A stretch of DNA of 64,000 nt from an uncultured Clostridium sp. (GCA_900553405.1 USDF01000001.1:2567-66566), one strand, 5' to 3'. Shown: positions 1,040-60,098, numbered from the stretch's first letter. Numbers and translations: made by a program. The notes: generated from the letters alone by a model not told the origin.

Positions 1040-2383
1040 GTGAAAAAATTGAATAAAATACGTATTAAGGAAAAGTATATAAAAATAGCATTGATATTAC
1101 TTGTTTTTATGATGACACTTACTTGGGCAATTATACAACCAAATAATGAAGGACCAGATGAAGGCATGAAAATGGATATATGCCAATATATTGCGAACCA
1201 TGGAAAATTACCACATGGTGGAGAAGAAGAAATAAGAAATCCTATATGGGGAATATCTTATGGATTTACTCCAATATTATCTTATATAATAGGTGGATTG
1301 TTTGTAAAAATAGCAAGTAATTTTACTAGTGATATTCATATACTTTACATTGTTGCGAGATTAGTGAGTGTACTTTGCATTACAGCAATGAGTATAGTGA
1401 ATATAAAAATTGGAGAAAAACTATTTAAAAACAAATATTATAAATGGTTCTTTATAGTGCTTACAAGTGCATTGCCGCAAATAATATTTATAGGCTCTTA
1501 TATAAATAATGATTCATTAGCTTTGTTATCAATTTCAATTATCATATATGCTTGGTTGAATGGACTAGAAAACAAATGGAATATAAAGACTTGTATAATA
1601 TTTTCAATAGGATTAGCATTATGTGCCTTATCGTATTACAATGCATATGGTTATATATTAACAAGTGTAATTTTATTTATAGCATCATATTTTATAAATA
1701 AAAATGAAAATAACAAATTTGATTTTAAAAATATGTTTAAGAAAGGAATAATAATTGCTGGAATAACATTTTTATTATGTGGATGGTGGTTCATAAGAAA
1801 TGCAGTAATTTATAAAGGAGATTTCTTAGGACTAAGTACAGAGGAAGAATATTCTGAGCAATATGCTATGGAAGAATTTAAGCCAACTAATAGAAAAACT
1901 CCACAAAACACAAATATGGGATTATTTAATATGTTATTTAAAAAAGGTTGGGTAATTGTAACATTAAAGAGTTTTGTAGGAGTATTTGGAACAATGATAA
2001 TCACAATGGGAACAAAATTCTATTTACTTTACTTTGGAGTATTTGCTATTGGAATAATAGGATATATATCAAGATTTTATAAACTTAAACATATAAAAGA
2101 AGATAAAAATAAATCATTATTAGAAATAATATTTGGAATAAATATTGTGATACCAATTGGCTTAAGTATATATTATTCATATTGCAATGATTTTCAACCA
2201 CAAGGAAGATATATAATGCCAATGTTAATACCATTTATGTATTTTGTTGTATTAGGGTTAGAAAACATATTAGATAAATTTATAAAAAACAAAAAAGCAA
2301 AAAAAGTAGTACAAATTTTGATAATAATTATAGGAATATTATTGCCAATACATTGCCTAATAAGAATGATTCAAAAATATTAA
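1040..2383 (+). CDS. GT-C fold membrane glycosyltransferase (ArnT/PMT/GtrC-like, polyprenyl-phosphate-sugar dependent)
   Basis: 447 aa polytopic membrane protein. First periplasmic loop carries GPDEG (the DE motif of GT-C enzymes). Sits between the GT2 and aminotransferase genes. Confidence 0.6.
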   Translation: MKKLNKIRIKEKYIKIALILLVFMMTLTWAIIQPNNEGPDEGMKMDICQYIANHGKLPHGGEEEIRNPIWGISYGFTPILSYIIGGLFVKIASNFTSDIHILYIVARLVSVLCITAMSIVNIKIGEKLFKNKYYKWFFIVLTSALPQIIFIGSYINNDSLALLSISIIIYAWLNGLENKWNIKTCIIFSIGLALCALSYYNAYGYILTSVILFIASYFINKNENNKFDFKNMFKKGIIIAGITFLLCGWWFIRNAVIYKGDFLGLSTEEEYSEQYAMEEFKPTNRKTPQNTNMGLFNMLFKKGWVIVTLKSFVGVFGTMIITMGTKFYLLYFGVFAIGIIGYISRFYKLKHIKEDKNKSLLEIIFGINIVIPIGLSIYYSYCNDFQPQGRYIMPMLIPFMYFVVLGLENILDKFIKNKKAKKVVQILIIIIGILLPIHCLIRMIQKY

Positions 2384-2405
2384 TTATAGAAAGAGGAAAA
2401 ATAAA

Positions 2406-3545
2406 ATGATAGGATTTAATATACCACCAGTTATAGGAACTGAAGAAAAATATGTAAAACAAGCAATAGAAGCACATAAAATTTGCGGAGATGGAGAGTT
2501 TACAAAAAAGTGTAAAGAATGGATGGAAAATAGATTTAAAGCGGAAGAAGTTCTTCTTACAACTTCATGCTCTAGTGCTTTAGAAATGGCAGCACTTTTG
2601 GCAGATATAAAACCAGGAGACGAAGTTATTATGCCAGCATTCACATTTGTGTCTACTGCAAATGCATTTGTTTTAAGAGGGGCTAAAATAGTATTTGTTG
2701 ATATTAGACCAGATACTATGAATATAGATGAAAAATTAATAGAAGCGGCTATTACAGATAGAACTAAAGCGATAGTTCCTGTTCATTATGCAGGTGTAGC
2801 TTGTGAAATGGATAAAATATTAGAGATTGCTAAAAAACATAATTTATTAGTAATTGAAGATGCTGCACAAGGAGTTATGGCGAAATATAAAGATAAATAT
2901 TTAGGAACCATTGGAGATATAGGCTGTTATTCTTTCCATGAAACCAAAAATTATAGTTCTGGTGAAGGTGGAGCAGTAGTATTTAAAGATAATAGATATA
3001 CGGAAATGGCTGAAATTATAAGAGAAAAAGGAACTAATAGAAGTAAATTTTTTAGAGGTCAAGTAGACAAATATACATGGGTAGAATGTGGATCATCATA
3101 TTTGCCAAGTGATATAAATGCAGCATATTTATGGGCAGAATTAGAACAAGCAGATAGAATAAACGATAATAGACTTGATACATGGAATTATTATAATGAA
3201 AATTTAAAAATATTAGAAGATGAAGGATATATACAAAGACCTTACATTCCAGAAGAATGCAAACATAATGCACATATGTATTATATAAAAGCAAAAGATT
3301 TAGAGGAAAGAACAAATTTAATTAAATATTTAAAAGAAAATGGAGTACAAGCAGTATTTCATTATATTCCACTTCATACTGCACCAGCAGGAATTAAGTA
3401 TGGTAGATTTAATGGTGAAGATAAATATACAACAAAAGAAAGTGATAGATTATTAAGACTACCAATGTATTATAATCTACAAAAAGAAGACGCAGAAAAA
3501 GTGGTACAAACTATAAAAGATTTTTATACAAAGAATGTTAAATAA
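2406..3545 (+). CDS. DegT/DnrJ/EryC1 family PLP aminotransferase (WecE/ArnB-like, NDP-4-keto-sugar aminotransferase)
   Basis: N-terminus MIGFNIPPVIGTEEKYVKQAIEAHKICGDGEFTKKC matches the WecE/RffA start. Full-length 379 aa. Confidence 0.85.
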   Translation: MIGFNIPPVIGTEEKYVKQAIEAHKICGDGEFTKKCKEWMENRFKAEEVLLTTSCSSALEMAALLADIKPGDEVIMPAFTFVSTANAFVLRGAKIVFVDIRPDTMNIDEKLIEAAITDRTKAIVPVHYAGVACEMDKILEIAKKHNLLVIEDAAQGVMAKYKDKYLGTIGDIGCYSFHETKNYSSGEGGAVVFKDNRYTEMAEIIREKGTNRSKFFRGQVDKYTWVECGSSYLPSDINAAYLWAELEQADRINDNRLDTWNYYNENLKILEDEGYIQRPYIPEECKHNAHMYYIKAKDLEERTNLIKYLKENGVQAVFHYIPLHTAPAGIKYGRFNGEDKYTTKESDRLLRLPMYYNLQKEDAEKVVQTIKDFYTKNVK

Positions 3546-51385: not shown

Positions 51386-51413
51386 TAAAAATAAGTTGAA
51401 AGGGAAAAGAATA

Positions 51414-51611
51414 ATGAAAAGTTCAAAAGAGTTTATGGACAATTTTATGGAAAACTGGAAAAATATGATTAAGTACCAAGATGTAAAATTGAATCCGATT
51501 GAGCCAAATTATGATGAGTTTGAAAGAGCGTTTAATGAAGAAAAGAAAATAGTAAGTACTCAAGAATGTAGAAAATCTAGAAAAATGATAGAAATAGATG
51601 ATGAAAGATAG
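51414..51611 (+). CDS. small hypothetical protein within suf operon
   Basis: 65-71 aa (alternative start 51396). Confidence 0.4.
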   Translation: MKSSKEFMDNFMENWKNMIKYQDVKLNPIEPNYDEFERAFNEEKKIVSTQECRKSRKMIEIDDER

Positions 51612-51619
51612 AAGGAAGG

Positions 51620-52847
<1,228 letters not shown>

Positions 52848-52886: not shown

Positions 52887-53756
52887 ATGAATATTGATAA
52901 AGAAGAACTAGATCAAGCTTTGAAATTTTATGAAATAGATGATGTAGCATATGCTGATAAGTGCTATAGATGTTTAGAATTTTTAAACAACAATAAAGAA
53001 TTTAAAAACGAAGCAGATAAAGTATATTCTATTTTATATGAAGACACTGAAAATAAAATAGAGGACTTATGGAACTTTCAAGACATTAAAGAATTATTTG
53101 GCGAAGAAAATAATCCTTATATTACTAATATATTAGTACTTAGCGGATATAAAACGCACTTAAATAATATGAAAAAATTCAATTTAGATAGTGAGCAATG
53201 TAAAATTCATAAAATAAGAGTAAAAGAAACACTTACTAATGATATATATCAACGAAAATATGATGGAATACGAATATCTCAAATGATATGGGGAGCATAT
53301 TTTATTAATTTGAAATTAATAGAAGTAGGAAGATTACAATATGAAAAATCTATATTAAACCCCATAACAAAACAAAAAGAAAATTGTATAAAAATACATA
53401 TACCAAGAGGCAATAGTTTAGATGATCAACCGGTTAAAAAATCAATAAAACAATCTAAAACACTAATTGAAAAATATTTTAAACTAAAAGATTATAAATA
53501 TTATTGTAATAGTTGGTTACTAAGTAAACAAATACAAGAATTGTTAGATGAAAATTCGAATATAGCAAAATTTTATAAAATGTTTGATGTAATAGAAGGA
53601 GAAGAATGTACAGCTGATATTTTAAATTTTGTATACAATATCAAAAAATGCGATAATTACAATAACCTAGAAGAAAGCACATCACTACAAAGAAATGTAA
53701 AAAAATTATTAAAAGATGAAATAATGATAAAGACAGGTATAGGAATTTTAAAATAA
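52887..53756 (+). CDS. hypothetical protein inserted between sufS and sufU
   Basis: 289 aa, no confident family assignment. Cys pairs (CYRC) near the N-terminus. Confidence 0.45.
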   Translation: MNIDKEELDQALKFYEIDDVAYADKCYRCLEFLNNNKEFKNEADKVYSILYEDTENKIEDLWNFQDIKELFGEENNPYITNILVLSGYKTHLNNMKKFNLDSEQCKIHKIRVKETLTNDIYQRKYDGIRISQMIWGAYFINLKLIEVGRLQYEKSILNPITKQKENCIKIHIPRGNSLDDQPVKKSIKQSKTLIEKYFKLKDYKYYCNSWLLSKQIQELLDENSNIAKFYKMFDVIEGEECTADILNFVYNIKKCDNYNNLEESTSLQRNVKKLLKDEIMIKTGIGILK

Positions 53757-53786: not shown

Positions 53787-54224
53787 ATGGAAGACTTAAC
53801 AGATGTTTATAACGAGCTAATAATGGAACATAGTATGAATTCATATAACAAAAAAGAACTTAAAGATGCAGACTACTGTGAGGTTGGTCATAATCCAAAT
53901 TGTGGAGATGAAATAACACTTGAATTAAAACTAAATGGAGATATAATTGAAGATATGGCTTTTACGGGTCACGGTTGTGCAATTTCTCAAGCATCAACAT
54001 CTATAATGATAGATACACTAAAAGGAAAAACTATAGAAGAAGCAAAAGAGATTGTAAAGACTTTTATAGAAATGATAAAAAGAGAAATAACCGATGAAAA
54101 AGAATTAGAAAAATTAGAAGATGCTATAGCTTTTAGAAATGTAGCTAATATGCCTGCCAGAGTAAAATGTGCACTTTTAGCATGGCATACGATTGAAGAT
54201 ATATTAAATAAAGATTGTCAATAG
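53787..54224 (+). CDS. sufU: SufU/NifU-like Fe-S (zinc-dependent sulfurtransferase) scaffold
   Basis: HNPNCGDE ... GHGCAISQAS ... C-terminal Cys motifs. Confidence 0.85.
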   Translation: MEDLTDVYNELIMEHSMNSYNKKELKDADYCEVGHNPNCGDEITLELKLNGDIIEDMAFTGHGCAISQASTSIMIDTLKGKTIEEAKEIVKTFIEMIKREITDEKELEKLEDAIAFRNVANMPARVKCALLAWHTIEDILNKDCQ

Positions 54225-54250
54225 GAACGCTCTTATTGACAATCTTTATT
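54215..54250 (+). terminator. rho-independent terminator (near-identical hairpin to 5529-5561)
   Basis: ttgtcaatagga-acgc-tcttattgacaa + TCTTTATTT. Confidence 0.75.
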
Positions 54251-54477
54251 TAGTTAAAAAACAATTTTTACATTAATTAAAAGTATAAAGTGTTTTTTTA
54301 TGTTACACTTTGAATAAATATATAAACCAAAGGCATTGTAAAAATTATGTAAATATGATACAATTGTATTGTAATTTTTTGCAAGGAAAATTATGGTAGG
54401 TTGCTAACACCTATAGTATATAATTTTCAAAGCAAACTACAAAACACTATTTATTATTTAATAATGGAGGATATTTT

Positions 54478-55845
54478 ATGAATCTAAGAGAAAAAATTTA
54501 CCATCGGACTCATTTAAGAGAAGTAAAACATACAACTCTTAATCCTTATGGACCTGGTGTGGTACGTATACATTTAGTACCGCCGAGACCACAAAATGAA
54601 TTGGCACCTAGTGTAGCTATTTTAAACGGAAAGGATATCTTGCCAATTAATTCTTCTTGGGCTATTCTTCTTTCTGAATTTATTGACCAACTCAATAAAT
54701 TCAATGGTCATGAAATTACAAAAGAAGATTTAAGAATTGTTCGGGACAGAACTTTAATTGAAGTACGCAAGATTTATCCAAAAGTGAAAAAAGAAAGGTT
54801 GCAAAAAGACCTTTCCATAATTATCGAGACTCTGTGTAGTATTGCATATGGTGAGACTCCTAAAGTGGATATTCCATATATGACTATTGGTGAATATGCT
54901 CAATACATGAATGCACCTCACAGAATGGATTTAATGATTAGTAGCATGTCAAAAAATGGAGTATGGCATTGCAACCAAAAGTGTGTAAATTGCTATGCAG
55001 CAGGACAGCACAATGCTATCGTTTCCGAAATTTCAACTGAAGAATGGAAAACTATTATTGACAAATGTAGGAAAGTTTATATTCCTCAGCTTACATTTAC
55101 AGGAGGAGAGCCTACCATGAGAAATGATTTAGTAGAACTAATAGACTATTCTCGTTGGTTTGTTACTCGGCTTAATACTAATGGTCAATTGCTTTCTAAA
55201 GAATTGTGTAAGCAGCTTTATGAAGCAAGTTTAGATAGTATTCAAATAACTCTTTATTCTTCAAAAGAAGATGAACATGAGCAATTAATCGGAAATTGTC
55301 ATGGTGCTTTTGAAAAAACTGTGCAAGGGATAAAAAATGCTTTAGCAGCAGGTCTGAATGTAAGCGTAAATACGCCATTGTGCAAGGTAAACCCTAATTA
55401 TGTAGAAACTCTTAAGTTTTTACATGAACTTGGCGTAAAATACGTGTCTTGCTCTGGTATTATCTTTACTGGAAATGCAAGAAATCCATCTGCTAAAATG
55501 CAACAAATGTCGGAAGATGATCTTTATTCTGTACTGAAAGCAGCTACAAAGTATTGTAAAGAAACTCATATGGAAATTGCATTTACATCTCCTGGATTGG
55601 TTTCTGAAGAAAGATTACGCAAACTTGGCATTGAAGTTCCAACGTGTGGAGCTAGTATGAGCAATATGGCAATTGCCCCTAATGGGGACGTAGTGCCTTG
55701 CCAAAGTTGGCTTAATGAAAATTCTTCACTTGGTAACATGTTAACAGATTCTTGGAAAAAGATTTGGAATGCACCTCTTTGTTTGAGTACAAGAGAATTT
55801 GCAGCTAAACTTGAGTACAAATGTCCATTAAGACAAGGATTTTAA
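54478..55845 (+). CDS. radical SAM enzyme with C-terminal SPASM/twitch domain and ~150-aa N-terminal extension
   Basis: CNQKCVNC (CX3CX2C) at residues ~163-170. GGEPTM glycine-rich motif. C-terminal CGASMSNMAIAPNGDVVPC and further Cys residues typical of SPASM auxiliary clusters. Confidence 0.75.
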   Translation: MNLREKIYHRTHLREVKHTTLNPYGPGVVRIHLVPPRPQNELAPSVAILNGKDILPINSSWAILLSEFIDQLNKFNGHEITKEDLRIVRDRTLIEVRKIYPKVKKERLQKDLSIIIETLCSIAYGETPKVDIPYMTIGEYAQYMNAPHRMDLMISSMSKNGVWHCNQKCVNCYAAGQHNAIVSEISTEEWKTIIDKCRKVYIPQLTFTGGEPTMRNDLVELIDYSRWFVTRLNTNGQLLSKELCKQLYEASLDSIQITLYSSKEDEHEQLIGNCHGAFEKTVQGIKNALAAGLNVSVNTPLCKVNPNYVETLKFLHELGVKYVSCSGIIFTGNARNPSAKMQQMSEDDLYSVLKAATKYCKETHMEIAFTSPGLVSEERLRKLGIEVPTCGASMSNMAIAPNGDVVPCQSWLNENSSLGNMLTDSWKKIWNAPLCLSTREFAAKLEYKCPLRQGF

Positions 55846-55859
55846 GAAAGGAAATAGCT

Positions 55860-56813
55860 ATGAGAAAATTTAAGAGATTTTTTGCATTTTTATTTTTAAT
55901 AGCAATTTGTATTCTTGCTATACCTAATAAAGTGTTTGCCAAAGAGCCACTGGATGAAATTCAAGATTATGAGTTGATCGTTGACATGCGGAATGATGGA
56001 ACAATGGATATCAAGTATCATATTGAGTGGAAGGTTTTAGACGATTCGTCTGAAGGACCACTTTCTTGGGTAAAAATTGGAATTCCGAATAAGCACGTTG
56101 ATGAGATACAGGCGAGTAGCAGTAATATAAACGAAATCAAGTATATGGCTGAGTCAGGCAAAACATATATAAAGGTTCATTTTGATCGTGAATATTATGC
56201 TAATGAAATTATAAGTTTTGATTTTTCAATTCATCAATCACATATGTATGTAATAGATGAAGAAGATCATTTGCTTAGATATTCATTTACACCTGGTTGG
56301 TTTGATGAAATTGAAGTTAAAAATATTGTAATAAGATGGAATGACTTTAATGTCATTAAAAGCAATTCTAAACAATCAGAGAACGGATATCTAGTATGGA
56401 ACTCTTCATTATCATATGGAGAAAAGATAAATGCTTCCGTTTCATATAATTTAGATGCTTTTAACACCAATAAAGCGGAGCAATACAAGGAAAATGAAAG
56501 CACTGTAAATGAAACGACAGTTATTTTAGTCGTTGGTGTAATTTTTTTAGTGATTGTTGTTATTGCATTACTTATATATTTGTCAAGAGATGATTATGAT
56601 AATCATAGCGGTTTTGGAGGTGGTGGAACAGTTTATCACAGCACATATATACACCATTCTTCATGTGCAAGTCGTAGTTCTTGTGTAAGCCATTGTGCAT
56701 GTGCATGCGCTTGTGCTGGTGGTGGAAGAGCGGGTTGCTCTAAAAAAGATTTTTATGCTACAAAATTGAACTCCAATATGATTCAGGAGGTCCTTAAAGA
56801 AGATTTAAAATAA
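55860..56813 (+). CDS. membrane protein: signal peptide, ~190-aa extracytoplasmic domain, one TM, Gly/Cys/His-rich cytoplasmic tail (…HHSSCASRSSCVSHCACACACAGGGRAGCS…)
   Basis: Start at the Met with RBS aaggaaatag. Cleavable signal peptide MRKFKRFFAFLFLIAICILAIPNKVFA. TM helix VILVVGVIFLVIVVIALLIYL. The tail is encoded by unusually GC-rich tgtgcatgtgcatgcgcttgtgct. Architecture reminiscent of DUF2207-type proteins (uncertain). Confidence 0.6.
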   Translation: MRKFKRFFAFLFLIAICILAIPNKVFAKEPLDEIQDYELIVDMRNDGTMDIKYHIEWKVLDDSSEGPLSWVKIGIPNKHVDEIQASSSNINEIKYMAESGKTYIKVHFDREYYANEIISFDFSIHQSHMYVIDEEDHLLRYSFTPGWFDEIEVKNIVIRWNDFNVIKSNSKQSENGYLVWNSSLSYGEKINASVSYNLDAFNTNKAEQYKENESTVNETTVILVVGVIFLVIVVIALLIYLSRDDYDNHSGFGGGGTVYHSTYIHHSSCASRSSCVSHCACACACAGGGRAGCSKKDFYATKLNSNMIQEVLKEDLK

Positions 56814-56825
56814 AAAGTGTTTCGT

Positions 56826-56866
56826 ATTAAAAATAGCACTCGTTTAATAACGAGTGCTATTTTCAT
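56826..56866. terminator. bidirectional terminator hairpin
   Basis: aaatagcactcgtt-aata-acgagtgctattt. Confidence 0.75.
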
Positions 56867-56929: not shown

Positions 56930-57502
56930 TTATTTATTATTGCTGTATTCTGCTAAAGTAGGCCACTTTGTATCTTTATCTGAAAAAATAAGTTTTTTGA
57001 ATCCACCCACTTCTTCAATAGGCCAGTTAATTTCAAGTGCAGGATCATTCCAAATAAGTCCGCCTTCATCTCCAGGTTGATAAAACTTGTTAACTTTGTA
57101 TGCAAAAATAGCTTCATCAGATGTTACTAAAAAGCCATGTGCAAAGTTTTCAGGAATGAAAAACTGACGATTGTTGTCTCCTGTAAGTAATACTCCGTAA
57201 GCCTTTCCATAAGTAGGTGAATCTTTTCTTAAATCAACAGCTACATCATAAACAGCTCCTTTAACAACTCTAACAAGCTTTGCCTGAGAAAATTCACCAT
57301 TTTGGAAGTGTAACCCTCTTATTACTCCTTTTTTAGAACAAGATTGGTTATCCTGTATAAAAGTACAATTAATTCCGATTTCTTCGAAATCTCTCTGAGA
57401 GTATGTTTCCATGAAGTAACCCCTGCTGTCACCATGTCTTGTAGTTTCAACAACTTTTAATCCTTCAATACCTGTTTCTTCAACAATTTTTACCTGTCCC
57501 AT
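56930..57502 (-). CDS. rfbC: dTDP-4-dehydrorhamnose 3,5-epimerase
   Basis: 190 aa cupin. Matches the RmlC family (HGDSRGYFMETY, GLHFQ, FIPENFAHGF). Confidence 0.85.
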   Translation of the reverse strand: MGQVKIVEETGIEGLKVVETTRHGDSRGYFMETYSQRDFEEIGINCTFIQDNQSCSKKGVIRGLHFQNGEFSQAKLVRVVKGAVYDVAVDLRKDSPTYGKAYGVLLTGDNNRQFFIPENFAHGFLVTSDEAIFAYKVNKFYQPGDEGGLIWNDPALEINWPIEEVGGFKKLIFSDKDTKWPTLAEYSNNK

Positions 57503-58931: not shown

Positions 58932-59234
58932 ATGGCATTGGAAGATAGAAAAATGCAATCAAATAATATGAATGTAATTCAAAATTTAGTATTAGAAAAT
59001 AGAGAAAAACTTAGCATTTCTGGAGTTTTAGATGTGCTTAGTTTCGACGATCAAGTAGTAATAGTTGAAACAGAATTAGGACTTCTTACGATAAAGGGAG
59101 AAAATTTAAGAATTAATAAATTAAGTATAGATACTTCAGAAGTTATAGTTGAAGGCGAAATATATAATTTAGCATATAGTGAAAATGATATGGATAAAAA
59201 ATCAGGAGGAATATTTAATAAAATATTTAAATAA
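58932..59234 (+). CDS. yabP: sporulation protein YabP
   Basis: 100 aa. Family assignment recalled from memory; yabP-yabQ-divIC synteny. Confidence 0.75.
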   Translation: MALEDRKMQSNNMNVIQNLVLENREKLSISGVLDVLSFDDQVVIVETELGLLTIKGENLRINKLSIDTSEVIVEGEIYNLAYSENDMDKKSGGIFNKIFK

Positions 59235-59258
59235 AACTTAAAATTAGAAGGTGATAAT

Positions 59259-59750
59259 TTGGAAAATGGAATATTAATGCAATTATACTCTATGTTAGTT
59301 TTTATTATTAGCGGTATATTTATAGGTATATTTTTCGACATATTTCGTATACTTAGAAAATCTTTTCATACTCCAGATATTATTACATATATAGAGGATG
59401 CTCTATTTTGGCTTATTACAGGTTTATTTTTAATATTTGTTATATTTAATTTTACTAATGGAGAAATACGAATTTATAATATCATTGGATTAATTTTAGG
59501 TAGTCTTTTATACATGATTTTAATAAGTAAAATCTTTATAAAAATTAATGTTAAAATTGTTTTATTCATAAAAAAAATCGTAACAAGTATAGTAAAAATA
59601 TTAATAATACCAATACAATTTCTTGCTAAAATTCTACAAAAAATATTTAAGCCTTTTACATTTTTCGTCATTAATACAAAGAATATATTATTAAATTTCA
59701 AAAAAAGTAAAAATAATAAGAAAAAACATCTAGAAAAAGAAGGATTTTAG
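59259..59750 (+). CDS. yabQ: spore cortex biosynthesis membrane protein YabQ
   Basis: 163 aa multi-TM protein directly after yabP. Confidence 0.65.
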   Translation: MENGILMQLYSMLVFIISGIFIGIFFDIFRILRKSFHTPDIITYIEDALFWLITGLFLIFVIFNFTNGEIRIYNIIGLILGSLLYMILISKIFIKINVKIVLFIKKIVTSIVKILIIPIQFLAKILQKIFKPFTFFVINTKNILLNFKKSKNNKKKHLEKEGF

Positions 59751-59822
59751 AAATAAATGTAGAAAAATATAAATAGAGCATATTTTGTAGACAAAAGAAA
59801 ACATTAGAGAGAGAGTAAACTT

Positions 59823-60098
59823 ATGAAAATAATAAAAAATATAATAAAAAAAATATTATTAATTGCTGTTGGCATATATATAATTAGTATATTTATTTCT
59901 CAACAACAACTTTTAAATACATACCAAAAAGAAATAGGAAAGTACGAAACTCAAAAACAAGAAGCTGAAGAAACAAAAGAATCTTTAGTTGCTATGAAAG
60001 ACAACGTAAATTCACCAGAATATATTGAAGAAATTGCTAGAGAAAAATTAGGAATGTACTTACCTAATGAAAGAGTTTATATTGATATTGGAAAATAG
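59823..60098 (+). CDS. divIC: septum formation initiator DivIC/FtsB family
   Basis: 91 aa: N-terminal TM, then a coiled coil (QQQLLNTYQKEIGKYETQKQEAEETKE) and the C-terminal EKLGMYLPNERVY motif. Confidence 0.75.
   Translation: MKIIKNIIKKILLIAVGIYIISIFISQQQLLNTYQKEIGKYETQKQEAEETKESLVAMKDNVNSPEYIEEIAREKLGMYLPNERVYIDIGK

Follow-up and report, generated by a model that had tools for sequence, protein, structure and literature searches.

A radical-SAM enzyme and a membrane protein with a cysteine-rich tail form a conserved gene pair that resembles a maturase and its substrate

A 64,000-nucleotide stretch of DNA from an uncultured Clostridium sp. (GCA_900553405.1 USDF01000001.1:2567-66566; hereafter, the window) carries, at positions 54,478 to 56,813, a gene for a radical S-adenosylmethionine (SAM) enzyme followed on the same strand by a gene for a membrane protein that ends in a cysteine-rich tail (Table 1). 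A previous interpretation, made without database searches and referred to here as the sequence-only reading, had singled out these two genes and proposed that the tail might be the substrate of the enzyme. The two proteins and their genomic surroundings were examined here with homolog comparisons, profile libraries, structure models, and literature searches.

The mechanical open reading frame (ORF) of the partner gene spans 55821..56813(+). Its true start is almost certainly M14, at 55860, because homologs and gene calls on four independent gut-metagenome contigs agree on a protein of 317 amino acids. Homologs of the partner were 305 to 326 amino acids long and covered 96% of the mechanical ORF, and AAGGAAA, which resembles a ribosome-binding site, can be read 5' of the start at 55860. 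With this start the two genes do not overlap and are spaced by 14 nucleotides. The pair looks like a bicistronic unit, or operon, of its own. As the sequence-only reading had stated, neither spacer flanking the pair contains a plausible small precursor ORF.

Table 1. Features of the gene pair and of its immediate flanks, in positions of the window
Feature	Position	Strand	Basis
Radical-SAM/degenerate-SPASM enzyme, 455 amino acids	54478..55845	+	ORF; Pfam Radical_SAM, SPASM, and Fer4_12 above threshold
N-terminal domain, four-stranded sheet then three helices, predicted to be RRE/winged-helix-like	54517..54852	+	AlphaFold2 model; residues ~14-125
CX3CX2C (CNQKCVNC; C165, C169, C172), radical-SAM [4Fe-4S] cluster motif	54970..54993	+	Residues 165-172
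SPASM remnant, C390-x17-C408 (CX12GX4C) and C449	55645..55833	+	Alignment with orthologs
Partner membrane protein, 317 amino acids	55860..56813	+	ORF, homolog lengths, and gene calls
Signal peptide (MRKFKRF..., hydrophobic core, VFA|KE)	55860..55940	+	Sequence, hydropathy, AlphaFold2 helix 2-20
Extracytoplasmic all-beta (beta-sandwich) domain, DUF2207-N-like (distant), OST1/ribophorin-I-like fold	55941..56504	+	AlphaFold2, Foldseek
Single transmembrane helix, residues ~218-242	56511..56585	+	AlphaFold2 helix 218-242; hydropathy peak 221-239
Cytoplasmic tail, residues 243-317	56586..56810	+	Sequence, AlphaFold2
Invariant core CACACACAGGGRAGC, proposed modification site	56694..56738	+	Homolog comparison
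Ribosome-binding site GGAGG	54466..54470	+	Sequence read; 7 nt before radical-SAM ATG
Promoter-like site TTGTAA-17-TACAAT with TG	54336..54364	+	Consensus scan and sequence read
Terminator-like hairpin, 15 pairs	56830..56863	.	Between partner gene and convergent rmlC

The enzyme and the membrane protein were found together almost without exception, whichever of the two was used as the starting point. Among 48 genome loci retrieved with the tail protein, 47 had an enzyme homolog directly adjacent, usually upstream on the same strand and at times divergent or downstream, and the single exception starts at a contig edge and has no upstream DNA. These loci span Lachnospiraceae, Oscillospiraceae, Dehalococcoidia, Aminicenantes, Krumholzibacteriia, Chitinivibrionia, and Anaerolineaceae. 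Marvinbryantia, Gemmiger, and Lachnoclostridium are represented among the genomes that carry the pair. In the opposite direction, 80 metagenome loci were collected with the enzyme (49 to 67% identity); the partner was adjacent in all 71 loci with at least 300 bp of downstream sequence and in 49/49 with at least 1,600 bp, and 46 of these 49 encoded the cysteine core described below. The sequence-only reading had named co-occurrence of homologous pairs as a check, and both searches bear it out. All-against-all clustering of the ORFs in the 128 loci yielded no third conserved gene; clusters that appeared in 28 and 24 loci are apparently shadow ORFs over the two genes, in other frames or strands. 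Nor was a leader protease or an exporter conserved beside the pair in these loci. The partner family comprises more than 2,200 clusters at 90% identity, and more than 6,700 homologs of the enzyme were found, the top 120 of which were 59 to 93% identical along their full length. The pair is common in human-gut and rumen Clostridia and occurs in at least six other lineages; the carriers (gut, rumen, sediment, and groundwater lineages) are presumably anaerobes.

The partner was expected to consist of a signal peptide, an extracytoplasmic domain, a single transmembrane helix, and a tail, and this architecture was borne out by its homologs, 116 of 120 of which have exactly two hydrophobic segments, a signal sequence with a K/R-rich start and one transmembrane helix, as well as by the AlphaFold2 model. 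The predicted local distance difference test score (pLDDT) of the model was 75, and the ectodomain (residues ~30-200) was confidently modeled, with a pLDDT of ~90. The tail is placed in the cytoplasm because of the signal peptide. It consists, in order, of an acidic DDY segment, a Gly-rich segment, a beta-prone TVYHSTYIHH stretch, the Cys region, KKDFY, and a short amphipathic helix; residues 244-304 were disordered in the model (pLDDT <50) and residues 305-316 formed a helix at the end. Across the 48 genome loci the partners range from 317 to ~610 amino acids, with ectodomain identity down to ~20%. In longer partners (370 to 490 amino acids; L004, L005, L009, L019, L022, and other Lachnospiraceae), the transmembrane helix and the Cys tail are separated by a CxxC...CxxC insert that resembles a zinc ribbon and by a conserved PNTYxRVHV segment.

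The best Foldseek matches of the ectodomain included subunits of the eukaryotic oligosaccharyltransferase (OST) complex and M1 aminopeptidases. The output names only complexes and chains; in our reading, the parts that match are the N-domain of OST1/ribophorin I and the N-terminal beta-domain of the aminopeptidases. Matches to the N-terminal domain of DUF2207 (PF09972) were detected below the Pfam threshold in 27 of 28 partner family members (best E value, 7.6e-5), and the window partner matched with E values of 0.011 to 0.045 and 14 to 16 bits, compared to a cut-off of 24.4. DUF2207 proteins have Gly-rich stretches in their C-terminal regions, and so do many partners. However, in addition to the sub-threshold scores, the partner family differs in its single transmembrane helix, its invariant Cys core, and its obligate radical-SAM partner. 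The function of DUF2207 is unknown, and a Streptococcus mutans mutant has stress and biofilm phenotypes (PMC10457818). Weak matches to PF25184, a "YxzE-like putative bacteriocin" family, were seen in 8 of 28 partners over the transmembrane helix and the Gly/Cys-rich stretch (17 to 19 bits versus a cut-off of 40); these were judged to be probably compositional.

The tail is the only part of the partner that is almost invariant. CACACACAGGGRAGC was found in 117 of the 120 best partner homologs, and the others read CACACACASSGRAGC (two) or CACACACAGGSRAGC (one). The stretch HHSSCASRSSCVSHCACACACAGGGRAGCS occurs in the window tail exactly as the sequence-only reading had quoted it, with 7 cysteines rather than the 9 in 30 residues counted there. 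The C-terminus still reads (CA)n-GGG-[RGA]-[AV]-G-C in Aminicenantes, Dehalococcoidia, Chitinivibrionia, Krumholzibacteriia, and Anaerolineaceae metagenome-assembled genomes, and in other phyla the variants GGGGAGC, GGGAAGC, and GGGRVGC are also found. L003 and L029 are exceptions in appearance only: their tail is encoded in a shifted frame. Conservation of the 15-residue core is about as strict as in cofactor-forming peptides.

What is conserved in the core is the peptide. One identical 13-residue core peptide was present in 87 copies encoded by 73 different DNA sequences, and selection on the DNA or RNA of the core was therefore rejected. The major-allele frequency within the core was 0.59 at third codon positions and 0.97 to 1.0 at first and second positions, and Arg was encoded by both AGR and CGN. 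Synonymous sites in the core are thus free to vary, and selection therefore acts on the peptide.

A profile of the tail only, searched against 1.84 billion representative proteins (E ≤ 0.001), matched 273 clusters at 50% identity, and in every one of the best 150 of these 273 matches the tail lay at or near the C-terminus. No fusion of the tail to another type of protein was seen, all 91 full-length proteins with the tail also having the ectodomain, and the idea of such a module was dropped. Short matches look like fragments or chimeric gene calls. In two short gene calls (P0269 and P0363), the beginning of the radical-SAM protein (MNLREKIY...EVKHTT / EVLHTTLNPEGPG) runs straight into the Cys tail; these calls are probably assembly chimeras or deletions across both genes.

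The radical-SAM assignment of the upstream protein is clear. The CX3CX2C motif is unchanged in all aligned homologs and lies at residues 165-172, slightly downstream of the position (~163) given before. Pfam Radical_SAM (PF04055) matched residues 165-314 with 65.5 bits (cut-off, 29.5), and Fer4_12 was also above threshold. Classification with hidden Markov models, which had been suggested as a check, reached no well-characterized family: the curated NCBIfam equivalogs that were scored (NirJ, AhbC/D, PqqE, MftC, StsB, PapB, AlbA, WgkB, HxsC, and others) were all far below their cut-offs in the 25 models listed, and the best of them, NirJ2, reached 110 bits compared to a cut-off of 500. At the C-terminus, Pfam SPASM (PF13186) matched residues 390-439 with 36.1 bits (cut-off, 21.5), and CGASMSNMAIAPNGDVVPC is found at residues 390-408. 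The earlier proposal of a SPASM-like C-terminus holds to this extent, apart from a missing cluster motif that is considered below.

The predicted structure of the enzyme resembles maturases that act on ribosomally synthesized, posttranslationally modified peptides (RiPPs). The AlphaFold2 model (pLDDT, 79.5; predicted template modeling score, 0.81) has, before the radical-SAM barrel, an N-terminal domain composed of strands 17-21, 29-34, 45-49, and 53-57 and helices 59-73, 82-97, and 105-123. When the model was compared with structures in the PDB by Foldseek, the maturases SkfB, SuiB, and CteB ranked first, with 420 to 454 aligned columns that included the N-domain. SkfB, SuiB, and CteB are RiPP maturases that bear a RiPP recognition element (RRE), and the predicted fold fits an RRE-like N-domain. 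The domain is kept even in the most distant orthologs. The sequence-only reading had suggested that some 150 N-terminal residues could be a recognition domain, which agrees with the predicted fold and its matches but found no counterpart at the level of sequence, and we propose, from the model, that the N-terminal domain may recognize the tail.

The most likely explanation for these observations is that the two genes form a self-contained unit, one encoding a radical-SAM maturase dedicated to protein modification and the other encoding the substrate of that maturase. That the Cys tail is the substrate had been suggested before, and the suggestion fits the near-obligate two-way adjacency across several phyla as well as the near-invariant tail. 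We consider covalent modification of the tail by the enzyme, in situ, to be probable, though far from assured. The cytoplasmic enzyme would dock on a segment of the tail via its RRE-like domain, for which the beta-prone TVYHSTYIHH-type stretch upstream of the core and the helix downstream of it are candidates, and docking would put the CACACACAGGGRAGC core at the SAM/[4Fe-4S] site. Hydrogen abstraction by the 5'-deoxyadenosyl radical could start the covalent modification there. The likeliest product would be one or more intramolecular thioether bridges from Cys sulfur to carbon, of the sactionine or ranthionine type, which would fold the core across a GGG turn, while the remaining auxiliary cluster might bind the substrate thiolate. 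The disorder predicted for the tail was counted in favor of modification, since maturase substrates are likewise disordered. Since neither a protease nor an exporter is conserved, the tail would remain part of the membrane protein after modification.

Thioether chemistry is favored by analogy with the nearest structural relatives, with SkfB, CteB, AlbA, and GggB (PMC9389541), and because the substrate is Cys-rich, and a thioether as the specific product is a tentative proposal that may well prove wrong. Among radical-SAM enzymes, alpha-thioethers are formed by AlbA, GggB, and QmpB, beta-thioethers by NxxcB and PapB, and gamma-thioethers by CteB (PMC9389541). CteB, a ranthipeptide maturase acting on the six-Cys peptide SCIFF, and SkfB were among the best whole-chain structural matches. 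Like the window pair, the CteB/SCIFF, AlbA, and SkfB systems are clostridial or firmicute, encode a Cys-rich substrate next door, and have an enzyme in which a recognition domain (only predicted for the window enzyme) precedes the radical-SAM core and an auxiliary-cluster domain follows it. Unlike the window pair, their substrate is a soluble peptide of 40 to 60 amino acids and not the tail of a 317-amino-acid membrane protein. In the window pair, moreover, there is no protease or exporter, the core CACACACAGGGRAGC resembles no described precursor, and the SPASM domain of the firmicute enzymes no longer has its CX2CX5C part. A short separate precursor with leader and core, as RRE-dependent RiPP maturases have, was not found beside the window pair, and the only conserved neighbor of the enzyme is a membrane protein of 300 to 600 amino acids.

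In type 2 sactipeptide precursors the GGG motif lies close to the cross-linked Cys. This precursor family (GggB/streptosactin, QmpB) is named for its conserved GGG motif, and the enzymes install short sactionine rings (PMC9389541). By analogy, GggB and QmpB suggest how Cys-to-Gly/Ala alpha-thioethers might span the GGG turn of the tail; their substrates differ in being small, secreted streptococcal peptides. Another precedent is QhpD, a radical-SAM/SPASM enzyme that puts several Cys thioether cross-links into QhpC, a protein subunit that stays in the functional protein. QhpC is a small, soluble, periplasmic amine-dehydrogenase subunit with Cys-to-Asp/Glu links. It differs from the window partner in gene context and in having neither a membrane protein nor a CACACA motif.

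Several observations weigh against thioether formation on the tail, or against tail modification as such. StsB, PapB, and AlbA scored only 66, 55, and 52 bits against cut-offs of 340 to 850, so that the similarity of the enzyme to sactipeptide and ranthipeptide synthases was no better than that to the tetrapyrrole-modifying NirJ/AhbD (104 to 110 bits). No PqqD/RRE match was obtained by sequence, whether by Pfam on the N-domain alone, by Pfam on 15 N-domains, or by a profile search of the PDB. The charges on both sides of the transmembrane helix are negative, and topology is not settled by charge alone. Three of the 49 enzyme-seeded loci with at least 1,600 bp downstream have an intact enzyme and a partner without the Cys core, with a tail that is Gly-rich or truncated (L120, partner at 2320-3309; L125, 2889-3800; and L128); either the substrate motif was lost naturally or a GC-rich repeat collapsed in assembly. 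Recognition and modification of the tail are inferred from the computational results, and the RRE assignment is that of a predicted fold.

The auxiliary-cluster domain also belongs among these points. A full SPASM domain has a seven-Cys motif (CX9-15GX4C ... CX2CX5CX3C ... C) for two auxiliary clusters, which the window enzyme does not have; CX2CX5CX3C, the second auxiliary-cluster motif, is missing from it and from 120/120 close homologs. Alignment with distant orthologs shows the loss to be a 14-residue deletion present in every firmicute member, whereas the full CX2CX5CX3C was kept in 8/8 non-firmicute orthologs. Cys393 (CGAC), gained in most firmicute enzymes, is found in 114 of 120 relatives, and the window enzyme has Ser at this position. 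Judged by the alignment, the window enzyme descends from a true SPASM ancestor and is now Twitch-like, probably with one auxiliary cluster. Its C-terminal domain therefore differs from those of the characterized SPASM thioether synthases, and SkfB, with its single-cluster Twitch domain, is the closer model.

The tail and the auxiliary-cluster region vary together between lineages. The non-firmicute enzymes (L038-L042, L044, L046, and L048) have the full CX2CX5CX3C and "CSAA", and their partners have GGG[GA]AGC and, after it, either two additional Cys as a pair (HTCPxC) or a single additional Cys (SLHEC). Firmicute enzymes have the deletion and mostly "CGAC", and their partners read GGGRAGC[ST]xKDFY. 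This joint change may reflect co-evolution of enzyme and substrate.

If the tail is modified, the chemistry might not be thioether formation. Epimerization of the alternating Ala/Cys (YydG/PoyD-like), C-C or C-N cross-links, and Cys oxidation or desulfurization are candidates, for which many different reactions catalyzed by radical-SAM/SPASM RiPP enzymes provide precedent (PMC9389541). In the core, Cys alternates with a small residue that does not vary, and the invariant GGG comes next; all of these are good sites for hydrogen abstraction, and no curated thioether-synthase model was approached by the score of the enzyme. On the other hand, Cys-rich substrates of RRE-radical-SAM-SPASM/Twitch enzymes have so far mostly been thioether substrates, and two of the best structural matches, SkfB and CteB, form thioethers. 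Overall, such alternative chemistry seems unlikely, although it deserves to be kept in mind.

It is also rather improbable that the tail is a metal or Fe-S module (metallothionein-like CxCxCxC) and that the enzyme is its functional partner rather than its modifier, giving or taking a cluster or electrons, or acting on a membrane lipid or a small molecule while anchored by the membrane protein. At least seven conserved Cys in ~25 residues with C-x-C spacing would suit such a module, as would carriers that are presumed anaerobes. The best PDB sequence match of the radical-SAM core is the lipid-modifying GDGT-MAS; the PDB sequence matches of the enzyme are weak and confined to the core. However, the predicted maturase-like recognition domain is retained in the most distant orthologs, and the invariance includes residues that are not ligands (Ala, GGG, R-A-G), which is unexpected for a simple thiolate site and expected for a core that is recognized by an enzyme.

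A classical RiPP pathway, in which the modified tail is cleaved off and released as a small bioactive peptide and the membrane protein serves as a giant leader, is very unlikely. Even though the core is C-terminal and follows a conserved sequence, as in leader-core precursors, the 128 loci have no conserved protease or transporter beside the pair, the ectodomain is strongly conserved and always inherited with the tail, and the tail is on the cytoplasmic side.

The sequence-only reading had also pointed out that SCASR in the tail fits the (C/S)-x-(P/A)-x-R motif modified by anSME-type enzymes. The fit is literal, and anSME resembles the window enzyme in acting on a full-size protein rather than a peptide and in the structure of its radical-SAM core and SPASM part, over which it was among the Foldseek matches. 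However, [CS]x[PA]xR was present in only 1 of 120 homologous tails (relatives read, for example, SSCVSH, SSCARSS, or SSCVRSS), no sulfatase domain was detected in the partner by Pfam, NCBIfam, or Foldseek, and no other conserved gene lies nearby. The anSME match extended over ~330 columns, compared to 420 to 454 for the RRE-bearing maturases, anSME not being known to have an N-terminal RRE or recognition domain, and no anSME equivalog was among the 25 best NCBIfam matches, all of which were far below cut-off. Thus, formylglycine formation at SCASR was set aside as extremely unlikely. Adjacency with no functional link, or a tail that is functionless low-complexity sequence, is scarcely credible in the face of two-way co-occurrence across phyla and purifying selection at the level of the peptide.

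Full-text searches for the motif, for DUF2207 together with radical SAM, and for Cys-rich membrane substrates found no description of the pair, no Pfam or NCBIfam model covers it, and in public records the two proteins are either unnamed or carry just the generic label "radical SAM protein", in agreement with the earlier view that this is not a described class. The pair looks like an undescribed enzyme and substrate in which a whole membrane protein, not a small peptide, is modified. The known substrates of radical-SAM/SPASM maturases are mainly small ribosomal peptides, to which a few soluble proteins, among them sulfatases and QhpC, can be added. Modification of proteins by radical-SAM enzymes is already known from anSME and QhpD; what would be new here is a RiPP-type maturase with the cytoplasmic tail of a membrane protein as its substrate. 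The strict conservation of the core implies a specific chemical product that nobody has looked at. If the proposal is correct, the pair would represent a new substrate class for RiPP-type enzymes and a new posttranslational modification of bacterial membrane proteins, and would offer a way into the function of DUF2207-like proteins.

A further, more speculative and on balance unlikely, possibility is that the enzyme matures the tail into a membrane-tethered, protein-derived prosthetic group, which could be a poly-thiolate site caged by thioethers, a redox cofactor, or a cofactor that binds metal. In that case a DUF2207-like surface protein could link an event outside the cell to redox or metal chemistry in the cytoplasm of anaerobes. 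This would be a new class of radical-SAM-dependent membrane-protein maturation rather than a natural-product pathway, and a first functional handle on the DUF2207-like ectodomain.

The promoter-like site (Table 1) sits in a 253-nucleotide spacer 3' of sufU, and an inverted repeat with a T-run at ~54215-54252 lies between the suf genes and the pair; these spacer elements are pattern matches only, and promoter-like sites in the region are no commoner than in shuffled sequence. Upstream of the pair no riboswitch or leader RNA was detected, only hairpin noise being matched. The hairpin downstream of the partner gene probably ends the transcripts of both that gene and rmlC (rfbC), which the sequence-only reading had called divergent. 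It is convergent with the partner gene (56930..57502, minus strand) and is not a conserved neighbor. The SUF operon, rmlC, prfB, and yabP/Q ORFs of the window have no counterparts in the other loci, and functional links of the pair to the SUF operon, rmlC, or sporulation genes were rejected because these neighbors are not conserved.

The sequence-only reading had noted a higher GC content for the pair than for its surroundings. This is true of the tail DNA (51% GC versus 27% for the window), where the excess is due to Cys, Ala, Gly, and Arg codons, and is weak for the pair as a whole: the enzyme gene has 35% GC, 1.8 standard deviations above the mean of the long ORFs in the window and equaled by three others, and the ectodomain part of the partner gene has 30%. 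Horizontal transfer or a GC island was rejected, since the GC content of the enzyme gene is inside the range of the window and that of the tail reflects codon composition. No plasmid relatives of the enzyme were found. The single "phage" match to the enzyme (L133; MT837216.1) was deposited as "UNVERIFIED: Bacteriophage sp.", is a fecal contig, and carries the same pair among bacterial housekeeping genes. From their translations we take its flanks to include look-alikes of prfC, a YitT-like membrane protein, and an AAA ATPase, and the contig appears to come from a bacterial chromosome rather than from a phage.

The gene content of the window is near-identical to that of contigs from Hadza and other human gut metagenomes. 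The genes yabP and yabQ and a divIC-like gene (58932..60098), which come after prfB, indicate that the organism is a spore-forming firmicute. The SUF operon has an unusual make-up, with a small ORF of 65 to 71 amino acids (51396..51611) between sufD and sufS and a GNAT_C-domain protein of 289 amino acids (52887..53756) between sufS and sufU, both of which were also found in four independent gut-metagenome contigs (L129-L132). In sufS (51620..52750; ORF 52683..52847) there is a +1 frameshift just before the catalytic-Cys loop, and removal of any one base in 52680-52704 gives a 408-amino-acid SufS with the usual C-terminus. The frameshift is not a one-off sequencing error, because it is identical in the same four contigs, and sufS could be a pseudogene or subject to programmed frameshifting.

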